Made by a program: the position numbers. This document shows, in pieces, positions 60,401 to 63,400 of a stretch of DNA of 64,000 nt; positions within the stretch are counted from its first letter, which is position 1; the number at the start of each line of letters is the position of its first letter. The stretch lies in assembly GCF_013167455.1 (NCBI RefSeq), contig NZ_CP038328.1; one strand, given 5' to 3'. This stretch comes from Escherichia coli O157:H7. GTDB lineage: Bacteria > Pseudomonadota > Gammaproteobacteria > Enterobacterales > Enterobacteriaceae.

Positions 60401-63400
60401 TACCGCGATAACGTCGCCCGAATCATTAAAAACGCAATGCTGGATATCGGCCTGGCTATGCCTGTGAAAATCCGCATTGAGTGCCACATGCCGGATCGCC
60501 GTCGCCGTGACCTGGATAATCTGCAAAAAGCCGCTTTTGACGCACTCACTAAAGCAGGTTTCTGGCTGGATGATGCTCAGGTCGTTGATTACCGCGTTGT
60601 GAAGATGCCTGTTACCAAAGGTGGGAGGCTGGAACTGACCATCACCGAAATGGGGAATGAATGATGTTTGAGTTTAATATGGCAGAACTTCTTCGCCACC
60701 GCTGGGGGCGTCTGCGCTTATATCGTTTCCCCGGTTCTGTTTTGACCGATTACCGAATACTGAAGAATTACGCCAAAACCCTGACAGGAGCAGGAGTATG
60801 AAGTCAGAGATAACAATCAACTAATACTGTTTTGTTGATTTTTGCTTGTAATTGGCGTTCTGGTCTGATTTTTGTGGAGTAAGTTGATGCGTGATATTCA
60901 GATGGTTCTTGAGCGTTGGGGAGCGTGGGCGGCTAATAATCATGAAGATGTGACCTGGTCGTCCATTGCCGCCGGTTTTAAGGGACTGATCCCCGAAAAA
61001 GTAAAATCACGCCCGCAGTGCTGTGACGATGATGCGATGGTGATATGCGGGTGTATAGCCCGCCTTTACCGGAACAATCGCGATCTGCATGACTTGCTGG
61101 TTGATTATTACGTGTTGGGGGAGACGTTCATGGCGCTGGCACGGAAACATGGGTGCTCTGACACCTGTATAGGTAAACGCCTTCACAAAGCGGAGGGGAT
61201 TGTTGAAGGCATGCTGATGATGCTGGGAGTGAGGCTTGAGATGGATCGGTATGTTGAGCGTGAATTGCCGGGAGGGAGAACCTCTGTATTTTATCAGCGA
61301 AAAAATAGTTTACGATCGTAAAAATCTGCATATCATGATAAGAGTGGTTACATTGCCACGCTGCTTAACCCGCCGATGCGCGGGTTTTTTTGTACCCAGA
61401 ATCCTGTGAGCTATACGGAAAGTACACAGAAAGGAAGGTGCGACCACAATTAATAACAAAATCTTAAAAATTGCACATGGCACTATTAGTTTTCTAAATA
61501 TTGTGTATTTTTTGTATTGCAGGATGACCCTGTAACGAAGTTTGCGTAACAGCATTTTGCTCTACGAGTTTGCCAGCCTCCCCCAGTGGCTGGCTTTTTT
61601 ATGTCCGTAGCGTCAAAGCAGCAATGTCGCTGGGGCGTCGTGCAATTGGCGTTGAGCTGGAGACTGAACGTTTTGAGCAGACGGTCAGGGAAGTTCAGGA
61701 TTTAGTCAGTCAGAACGGATGATATTGCAGGATTAGTTACGTACCGTTATTATCCTGCGCCCGGCCCTTTAGCTCAGTGGTGAGAGCGAGCGACTCATAA
61801 TCGCCAGGTCGCTGGTTCAAATCCAGCAAGGGCCACCATATTACATACCGCTATTAGCTCATCGGGACAGAGCGCCAGCCTTCGAAGCTGGCTGCGCGGG
61901 GTTCAAGTCCCCGATGGCGGTCCATTATCGGTATTCAGCGTTGTTAGCTCAGCCGGACAGAGCAATTGCCTTCTAAGCAATCGGTCACTGGTCCGAATCC
62001 AGTACAACGCGCCACACCACACTTATCTGCCCTGACTCTCTTTTGCGGGCTTTTTATTACAGGAAAGACACCGGACAGTGAAATGTTAAATGCCTCACAA
62101 TTCAGGCAGTTGAATGTTGCCTGACATGCTGAGCGTTTGTTAAAAAAATTTCGCATGGTGAATCCCCCTGTGCGGAGGGGCAATCAGCAACCAGGTATAT
62201 GTGATAATCGCGGATTCAGGTGCTGATACTGAATTCACCGGGAGGCACCCGGCACCATGCAAGAAAAAGAATGTGCATGCAAACATGCCCCTCTCCGGAG
62301 GGGCTTTTTTATGGGTAAAAAATGCCCGAATGGGTTCGGGCAATAGCATGAGATACTGATATTGTTGTGTTGTTATCGTGTGGATTTTAACCAGGGTTTA
62401 TCAGGCTGCGCAACTGCGTGGCCTTTTTTCATTTCTTGGGCTGTAGTCCCCGTGTGTCATTCAGGCTTCCGGACTACAGCCCACTCCATATCTGATTTAA
62501 TACACTATCCCGGCCGGGAGGAATAATGACATTTAAACATTATGATGTTGTCAGGGCGGCGTCGCCGTCAGACCTTGCTGATGCACTTGCGCAAAAAATT
62601 CGTGAAGGATGGCAACCATACGGTGGGCCGTTTTCTTCGTATACGGATGATGGCGCAGCACTTATTCAGGCGATTGTCGCAGAAGGTGATGTGAGCACAC
62701 CTGTTGTGGTGAAGCTGACAGGTGGAGAAGGTGCAGTAATCAGCGCCACCAGAGACCCGGAGTATTACTTTATTGTGGTTCTGGCGGGGCAGTCAAACAG
62801 CATGGCATATGGTGAAGGCCTTCCGCTGCCGGAGACATATGACCGTCCGGACCCGCGTATTAAGCAGCTGGCGCGCCGCAGTACGGTGACACCGGGCGGT
62901 GTCGCCTGTAAATATAACGACATCATTCCGGCGGACCATTGTCTGCATGATGTGCAGGACATGAGCCGCCTTAACCATCCGAAAGCGGACCTGTCAAAGG
63001 GGCAGTACGGAACCGTGGGGCAGGGGCTGCATATCGCCAAAAAATTGCTGCCGTTTATACCGGCGAATGCGGGCATTCTGCTGGTTCCGTGCTGTCGTGG
63101 TGGTTCAGCGTTCACCACCGGAGCTGATGGCACATACAGTGACGCGAGTGGTGCTTCGGAGAATTCAACCCGCTGGGGTGTGGACAAGCCGCTGTATAAG
63201 GACCTTATCGGTCGAACAAAAGCAGCACTGAAGAAGAACCCGAAAAATGTGCTGTTTGCCGTGGTGTGGATGCAGGGGGAATTTGATTTTGGCGGTACGC
63301 CGGCAAATCACGCAGCACAGTTTGGTGCGCTGGTTGATAAATTCCGTGCAGACCTGGCGGATATGGCAGGTCAGTGCGTCGGTGGCTCTGCTGACGGTGT

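Follow-up and report, generated by a model that had tools for sequence, protein, structure and literature searches.

An empty cargo slot in the probable late-operon leader of a toxin-free, Sp15-like yehV prophage of Escherichia coli O157:H7

The region described here lies near the right end of a 64,000-nucleotide stretch of the Escherichia coli O157:H7 genome (RefSeq assembly GCF_013167455.1, contig NZ_CP038328.1), which was analysed as a whole and is called the window in the following, and extends from a phage antiterminator gene, Q, through three tRNA genes to nanS-p, a gene of the prophage 9-O-acetyl-sialic acid esterase family. With a probability of about 90%, it represents the late-operon leader of the non-Shiga toxin (Stx) 'Sp15-like' lambdoid prophage found at yehV (mlrA) in many strains of E. 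coli O157:H7. A first-pass annotation of the window, made from the sequence alone, had described the locus as a Stx-phage-like junction without stx genes, left either by a Stx-negative relative or by a prophage that lost or never acquired the toxin. Anatomy, identities, junctions, and prevalence were determined directly on the DNA, and the statements below on RNA expression and roles draw on published work on identical sequences. For genes that extend beyond the window, the full-length copies were taken from the closely related strain Z563, which is 99.98% identical to the window over the overlap.

The Q gene, of the '933W/Sp15' type, is an ATG-started open reading frame (ORF) on the plus strand (60887–61321), encoding a protein of 144 residues that matches the whole Pfam model PF06530 (Phage_antitermQ; E-value, 1.5e-51) and phrog_79, and is identical to Q of the Stx2a phage F765 (AP012534) at 141/144 positions and to that of Sakai prophage Sp15 at 140/144. 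Overlapping the end of Q, a consensus scan revealed a probable late promoter PR' (TTTACG-16-TATCAT; 61309–61336, plus strand), and the region containing PR' and the Q-utilisation (qut) site (61290–61400) is identical to that of the Stx2a phage at 110 of 111 positions. Transcription would start at about 61343, a position obtained by counting back 258 nt from the 3' end that Sy et al. 2020 (PMC7547250) mapped at the terminator tR'. The terminator itself (61573–61600, plus strand) consists of a 7-bp G+C-rich stem, a 9-nt loop, and a U-run, and its position matches the 3' end determined by Term-seq (PMC7547250). Another terminator-like hairpin with a U-run, found by scanning at 61367–61392 on the plus strand (fold, −19 kcal/mol; z-score, −2.0), precedes it. 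Altogether, the scan yielded seven terminator-like sites in 60800–62700 as compared with 1.8 ± 1.4 in shuffled sequences. The Q gene is thus followed by a promoter-like site and then by intrinsic terminators ahead of the late genes, as in the late-control module (Q, PR', and tR') of lambdoid phages, and the PR'–tR' sequence is identical to that mapped experimentally in Sp15; by analogy, Q-dependent read-through would be expected at this locus. The Stx-phage-type Q gene and the two terminators (61367–61392 and 61573–61600) named in the first-pass annotation are therefore borne out.

The DNA between the start of transcription and tR' corresponds to the gene for the small RNA StxS (61343–61600, plus strand), of which the long form spans the 258 nt from PR' to tR', including the first hairpin, and the stable 74-nt form is equivalent to 61527–61600. 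Coordinates were transferred from the paper with an offset of +135 between the genome versions, deduced from the coordinates of the small RNA AgvB1. The 258-nt sequence is identical to the copies in Sp15 and the Stx1 phage BP-4795 (258/258) and nearly so to the Stx2a phage copy (257/258), and the stable 74-nt part is the same in all comparators (74/74 against Sp15). StxS has been reported to be constitutive in lysogens, to be processed by RNase E, to activate rpoS, and to repress stx1B; it accompanies the 144-residue (short) type of Q, and certain non-toxigenic phages have it too, one of them in O55:H7 (PMC7547250). The StxS of the present prophage would likewise be expected to bind Hfq, to be processed by RNase E, and to activate rpoS.

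Directly after tR' lies what remains of the C-terminal part of a DNA methylase gene (pseudogene, 61609–61722, plus strand; 'DNA methylase, incomplete, missing N-terminus' in RefSeq). Stx2a phages and a prophage of E. coli O55:H7 CB9615 have the same remnant, suggesting that the tRNA block once came after a complete methylase gene; this order persists in phage PPyecE_EH1910, whose full-length methylase gene has a 3' end 83% identical to the remnant. The three tRNA genes, ileZ (61763–61838; anticodon, CAT), argN (61848–61924; TCG), and argO (61938–62014; TCT), all on the plus strand, were detected by both ARAGORN and Rfam (56–72.5 bits against a gathering score of 29, with 72.5 bits for ileZ), and match their AP012534 counterparts at 76/76, 74/77, and 75/77 positions, respectively. 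Anticodons CAU, UCG, and UCU thus follow one another in this order downstream of Q, the arrangement of the ileZ–argN–argO module already recognised in the first-pass annotation. From its anticodon, the first tRNA is assigned to Met by ARAGORN, and it is annotated as tRNA-Ile or ileZ in RefSeq and in phage records; it would act as tRNA-Ile2 if C34 is modified to lysidine. The codons decoded by the module (AUA, AGA/AGG, and CGA/CGG) are rare in the host and several-fold commoner in prophage genes, in agreement with the rare Ile/Arg codons proposed earlier as its targets. Per 1000 codons, ATA, AGA, and AGG number 2.1, 0.9, and 0.7 in the 35 host ORFs of the window, 15.8, 11.2, and 5.3 in the early genes of the prophage, 4.0, 5.1, and 5.2 in its late genes, and 36.6, 14.6, and 4.9 in stx2AB. 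Because of this bias, the tRNAs are useful to the prophage even without stx.

From Q to a point 41 bp beyond argO (60885–62055), the sequence is 96.7% identical to that of the Stx2a phage F765. The post-argO tail (62015–62055, plus strand) contains a weak hairpin with a T-run, and its end forms the conserved left boundary of a slot for cargo genes, the 'moron' insertion site downstream of PR' in the term of Tree et al. 2014 (PMC4104026). As a terminator, the hairpin (62029–62055) was rejected for its weakness (−6 kcal/mol; z-score, −1.4). At position 62055, homology ends for the phages carrying Stx2a, Stx2c, and Stx2e (phiP27), for Sakai prophage Sp10, and for the CB9615 prophage. In the window, this boundary is followed by a filler of only 39 bp (ATTACAGGAAAGACACCGGACAGTGAAATGTTAAATGCC; 62056–62094, without assigned strand), in the place of which F765 carries a 1341-bp cassette consisting of the stx2 promoter region, stx2A, stx2B, and 45 bp, and Sp10 and CB9615 carry a 744-bp TerB-type cassette. 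Homology with F765 starts again at 62095. Right boundaries of the slot thus lie at 62081 for the stx1 block, at 62095 for stx2AB, and at 62135 for the TerB/TciA-family cassette. Apart from one mismatch, the stx-free phage phi296 has the same filler, the last 14 bp of which are also present in the DNA downstream of stx1B. Of 5426 complete E. coli genomes, 472 have the same empty junction, as do 8 phage records (phi296, phi315, phi367, TL-2011a, PPwrbA_EH2201, PPwrbA_EC3734, Lahn2, and Nil3).

A tblastn search of the whole window with Stx1A/B and Stx2A/B gave a best E-value of 0.67 and no homologue, and a blastn search for stx remnants with 7-base words returned only matches in the common backbone flanks. 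Hence, neither the stxA and stxB pair that marks the late region of a Stx-converting phage nor any stx-derived piece in 62015–62526, which would have told against the first-pass annotation, was detected. Nor is this a backbone that never carries the toxin at this position, since stx2AB of the Stx2a phage is inserted exactly at the junction. The earlier rule placing stx between the tRNAs and nanS-p is valid for Stx2 phages but not for the Stx1 prophages Sp15 and BP-4795, in which the tRNA module is missing. Because the filler is absent from Stx2 phages, deletion of the cassette could not have created this junction, and it is an empty allele of the cargo slot rather than the product of a simple stx deletion.

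The spacer between argO and nanS-p (62015–62526) comprises 512 bp without a conserved ORF. Although it is indeed free of protein genes, the earlier description of a ~500-bp non-coding stretch was incomplete, because two RNA genes were identified above the Rfam gathering thresholds. A gene of the STnc100 family, homologous to EcOnc27 of Sp5, occupies 62124–62316 on the plus strand (RF02076; 160.7 bits against a gathering score of 47); the match spans model positions 1–206, and a strong terminator is located at its end (62287–62310). On the minus strand, the gene for the anti-small RNA AgvB, a sponge of the host small RNA GcvB, occupies 62317–62378 (RF02702; 96.5 bits against 56), with a full-length match that has the consensus at every position; at 62/62 positions, the gene agrees with AgvB1 of Sakai Sp10 and also with the O55:H7 CB9615 copy. 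Its sequence (CGAUAACAACACAACAAUAUC...) contains the target of the GcvB R1 seed, CACAACA, in the 5' variable region, and ends in a terminator with an 8-bp stem and a U-run (fold z-score, −3.75). AgvB lies immediately next to the 3' end of the STnc100-type gene in convergent orientation and is 148 bp upstream of nanS-p, so that the convergent pair is placed between the cargo slot and the esterase ORF, in the layout reported by Tree et al. 2014 (PMC4104026), who used Hfq cross-linking to identify the convergent EcOnc27 and AsxR of Sp5, as well as AgvB1 and AgvB2 in Sp10 and Sp17. Another terminator-like hairpin with a T-run, found by scanning at 62403–62434 on the plus strand just upstream of nanS-p, overlaps the likely promoter region of AgvB on the minus strand. 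Sub-threshold Rfam matches to AsxR (43 bits, overlapping AgvB), Plastid-ycf2, and OmrA-B were disregarded.

Each of the five comparison phages has an STnc100-family match at this position, accompanied by AsxR in the Stx2a phage, by a marginal AgvB-like RNA in BP-4795, and by AgvB in PPyecE_EH1910; in Sp15 and phi296, the anti-small RNA variant falls below the Rfam threshold. ORFs of 52, 54, and 69 residues are present within 62140–62526, and hypothetical proteins have been annotated in the records of some phages (ORF42 of BP-4795 and three in phi296), raising the alternative that the spacer codes for small proteins instead of RNAs. There is only a very small chance that this is so, because the strand, frame, and length of the ORFs vary across seven homologous spacers, and two covariance models, STnc100 and AgvB, are matched here far above their gathering scores, the former in every comparison phage as well. 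Moreover, Hfq cross-linking and Northern data demonstrated RNAs from the homologous positions (PMC4104026). We therefore retain the assignment of the spacer to a convergent pair of small RNA genes.

The spacer leads, as had been noted earlier, into nanS-p, which starts at 62527 on the plus strand and runs past the end of the window (62527–64000), with its first 491 codons inside. The full-length protein of 648 residues in Z563 contains the domains DUF1737 (E-value, 3.2e-11), SASA (8.3e-11), and DUF6645 (2.5e-74) and matches phrog_143. With DUF1737 and SASA combined, its architecture is that of the NanS-p type, and the gene product is a predicted enzyme. Further along the Z563 prophage, the RefSeq annotation gives the gene for the tail assembly protein T as truncated and gpJ as frameshifted (Z563-segment positions 37622–37924 and 43213–46685).

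The corresponding region of strain Z563 is part of a lambdoid prophage with its integrase gene directly beside mlrA (yehV), and the placement in a yehV prophage proposed by the first-pass annotation is thereby supported. The segment 60800–63000 is contiguous at 100% identity in dozens of independently closed E. coli O157:H7 genomes, and 199 records match it at an identity of at least 99%. This conservation bears on whether the junction might be an artefact of assembly, in which near-identical lambdoid prophages had been collapsed and the Q–tRNA module joined to the wrong nanS-p. O157 genomes do contain 9–13 places resembling this 2.2-kb stretch, a situation in which short-read assemblies fail; however, the recurrence of the intact 2.2 kb in so many closed genomes, together with the presence of the same prophage in a published comparison (PMC8046923), leaves such an error next to no probability.

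Comparison with Sp15 of strain Sakai (CP-933V), which is integrated at the same site, shows how the two forms are related. The left arm (mlrA and int through gam; 42304–50355 of the window) is 99.9% identical to Sp15, and the late arm, beginning at ~62540 just inside nanS-p, is 96–100% identical to it, with 99.3% over the next 26 kb. Between these arms lies a centre of ~12 kb that differs from Sp15, in which the immunity, replication, and nin regions are unrelated or 95% identical. Q and the next 288 bp are 97.8% identical to Sp15; in place of 61610–62080 (the methylase remnant, three tRNAs, and 66 bp), Sp15 has 1484 bp with Pstx1-stx1AB. Near-identical arms around a different centre indicate that the two forms are related by homologous exchange of a central block, and not by removal of stx1 alone. 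BP-4795 resembles Sp15 in this part, both having Q 97–98% identical to that of the window, an identical StxS, and an STnc100-type RNA upstream of nanS-p, and both differing in the Pstx1-stx1AB block of 1484 bp that follows tR' without a tRNA module and in their immunity, replication, and nin regions; AgvB scores below threshold in Sp15.

These data also bear on a recent local deletion of stxAB from a Stx-converting prophage in this very strain, which would make it an enterohaemorrhagic E. coli (EHEC) that lost Shiga toxin. Loss of Stx during infection or culture is documented for O157 (PMC4609726), and both flanks of the junction are homologous to those of a Stx2a phage. On the other hand, removal of the cassette alone cannot yield a 39-bp filler that Stx2 phages do not have, and the junction is shared by the 472 complete genomes and the 8 phage records, the latter from O84, O103, and O157 hosts. 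Furthermore, the whole ~12-kb centre, and not stx1 only, differs from the Sp15 of the same site, which is itself devoid of any tRNA module. A recent deletion is thus already largely refuted, and we consider it highly unlikely. What the first-pass annotation had offered as a Stx-negative relative with its late-region scaffold preserved agrees well with the 96.7% identity to the Stx2a phage from Q to argO, the lack of stx sequence, and the arms 99.3–99.9% identical to Sp15.

Further insight into the empty slot and its scaffold was gained from the outgroup O55:H7 CB9615, a strain of the O157 progenitor type. Its yehV is unoccupied, btsS being next to an intact mlrA, and the module of Q, StxS, methylase remnant, ileZ, argN, and argO is found in a prophage at 3.29 Mb (NC_013941.1, 3275225–3315625; positions 19388–23538), with 100% identity over 61500–61900, genes for TerB-family and DUF3927 proteins in the cargo slot, and an identical AgvB. 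Since CB9615 has the module in another prophage, the module circulates among the resident prophages of this lineage and is exchangeable by homologous recombination.

Other relatives share parts of this arrangement. In the Stx2a phages (933W/Sp5/PA2 type; e.g., Stx2a_F765, AP012534), Q, PR', StxS, the methylase remnant, and ileZ–argN–argO occur in the same order, and the tRNAs are followed, as here, by the STnc100-type RNA, a convergent anti-small RNA, and nanS-p; in contrast, they have the stx2AB cassette of 1341 bp instead of 39 bp, AsxR instead of AgvB, and a downstream spacer and nanS-p only ~75–86% identical to those of the window, and many of them are short-tailed and use other integration sites. 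Sp10, the CB9615 prophage at 3.29 Mb, and PPyecE_EH1910 have in common with the window the tRNAs, a slot with the same left boundary, the STnc100-type RNA, an identical AgvB, and an SASA esterase gene, in this order, and their spacer from 62135 onwards is 94–98.5% identical, whereas their slot is filled by the TerB-family cassette of 744 bp and their integration sites and structural genes are different; Sp10 has, in addition, a Q of another family and two tRNAs only. The Q–tRNA–filler–STnc100–nanS layout of the stx-free phages with an empty junction (vB_EcoP_phi296/phi315/phi367, TL-2011a, PPwrbA_EH2201/EC3734, Lahn2, and Nil3) is the same as here, but their overall identity is only ~88%, that of the spacer ~71%, and their anti-small RNA variant is below the AgvB threshold. 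Of these, phi296, phi315, and phi367 are assigned to Traversvirus, and the names of the PPwrbA phages refer to the wrbA site.

The closest counterpart is the published non-Stx 'Sp15-like' yehV prophage of TW14359, C1-057, strains 9000/155, and others (Shaikh & Tarr 2003 as cited in PMC8309913, and PMC8046923), which on these accounts is the same element as that of the window, with no substantive difference. According to these sources, a non-Stx lambdoid phage occupies yehV in TW14359 and other stx1-negative strains (PMC8309913), and the stx-negative 'Sp15-like' prophage is intact, has a size of 47.6 kb, and carries a 10.2-kb stx-free fragment where Sp15 has a 12.8-kb stx1 fragment (PMC8046923). 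The mlrA-adjacent site is also that observed here, 60800–63000 is 100% identical to many such genomes, and the published replacement of ~12.8 kb by ~10 kb agrees with the block exchange described above. In the available text of PMC8309913 and PMC8046923, the small-RNA content of the junction is not described for the 'Sp15-like' prophage, and the genome papers on O55:H7 and TT12A/B hold nothing specific to this junction. The prophage and every component of it have already been described in the literature, so that the finding is correct but ordinary; the modest addition made here consists of the base-pair limits of the slot, the single left boundary common to stx2AB, the TerB-type gene, and 'nothing', and the small-RNA annotation of this prophage. 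The left limit of the slot lies at 62055/62056.

Several neighbouring genes of the same prophage may also be mentioned. A SIR2-family protein of 535 residues is encoded on the minus strand at 51143–52750 beside the prophage repressor gene (52857–53585), in a classic cargo slot of the immunity region that belongs to the central block differing from Sp15. The PADLOC candidate defence family PDC-S25 is matched at 781 bits and the SIR2 domain of ThsA less strongly, and the gene probably represents a prophage-encoded anti-phage defence. In the nin region, a HEPN-domain protein of 138 residues (58379–58795, plus strand; weak PADLOC match to PDC-M28A; E-value, 1.8e-07) is followed by an overlapping gene for a phrog_5760 protein of 133 residues (58774–59175, plus strand), and the two could constitute a toxin–antitoxin or defence pair.

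No data contradicting the anatomy were found in this analysis. Nevertheless, several points weigh against regarding the region as the leader of a working late operon with the regulatory RNAs described. With gpJ frameshifted and the gene for the tail assembly protein T truncated in Z563, the late operon may not lead to a viable phage. The known StxS target stx1B is absent from the prophage, and only the rpoS arm of the published function is applicable. That StxS, AgvB, the STnc100-type RNA, and the tRNAs are expressed from this prophage is presumed from identical or nearly identical Sakai sequences. Finally, the hairpin at 61367–61392, with its run of seven U, lies only ~25–50 nt past the presumed PR' start and is left unaccounted for by the published 258-nt transcript, Term-seq having placed the main 3' end at the second hairpin (PMC7547250); candidate roles for it are a pause, a partial terminator, or a part of the Q-utilisation site.

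On the assumption that the late-operon leader operates as its counterparts do, PR' would fire constitutively in the lysogen and transcription would stop at tR', giving StxS, the published activator of rpoS. The tRNAs would probably be transcribed from a promoter of their own, as a separate tRNA promoter has been reported for Sp5 (PMC7547250), and AgvB would be made from the opposite strand to sponge GcvB, with the convergent STnc100/EcOnc27-type RNA alongside. After induction, the Q-modified polymerase would pass tR' and the later hairpins, and transcribe in turn the tRNA genes, those for the small RNAs, nanS-p, and the genes for lysis and structural proteins. Between argO and the STnc100-type gene, where relatives carry stx2AB or a TerB-type gene, the cargo slot is empty except for the 39-bp filler.

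It is possible, although we regard it as rather unlikely, that the toxin-free yehV prophage is an active regulator of virulence in stx1-negative O157:H7 and not a passive relic, that its Q acts in trans to raise toxin expression from the Stx2a prophage, and that the block swap traded the toxin for regulatory RNAs. Action of Q in trans on a resident Stx2a prophage is plausible because Q and the PR'/qut region are nearly identical to those of the Stx2a phage (141/144 and 110/111, respectively), and, if true, it would explain the ~18-fold lower stx2a expression reported after deletion of the non-Stx yehV prophage (PMC8309913). Of the primers published for that deletion, the mlrA-side arm maps to 43155–43248, and the other arm falls outside the 49 kb compared. 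Besides Q, the prophage may supply StxS, as an activator of rpoS, and possibly an extra copy of AgvB, which has been published as an aid to growth in bovine rectal mucus.

For the typing of E. coli O157:H7, a Q933-type Q gene and an occupied yehV do not imply the presence of stx1. In the annotation of such genomes, StxS, the STnc100/EcOnc27-type RNA, and AgvB belong in this region in place of blank sequence or hypothetical proteins. The slot boundaries, with Stx2AB, Stx1AB, and the TerB-type gene as alternative cargoes, help to trace the movement of stx between phage backbones. If Q of the toxin-free prophage does cross-activate Stx2a prophages, the toxin output of clade 8 and lineage I/II strains would be affected.

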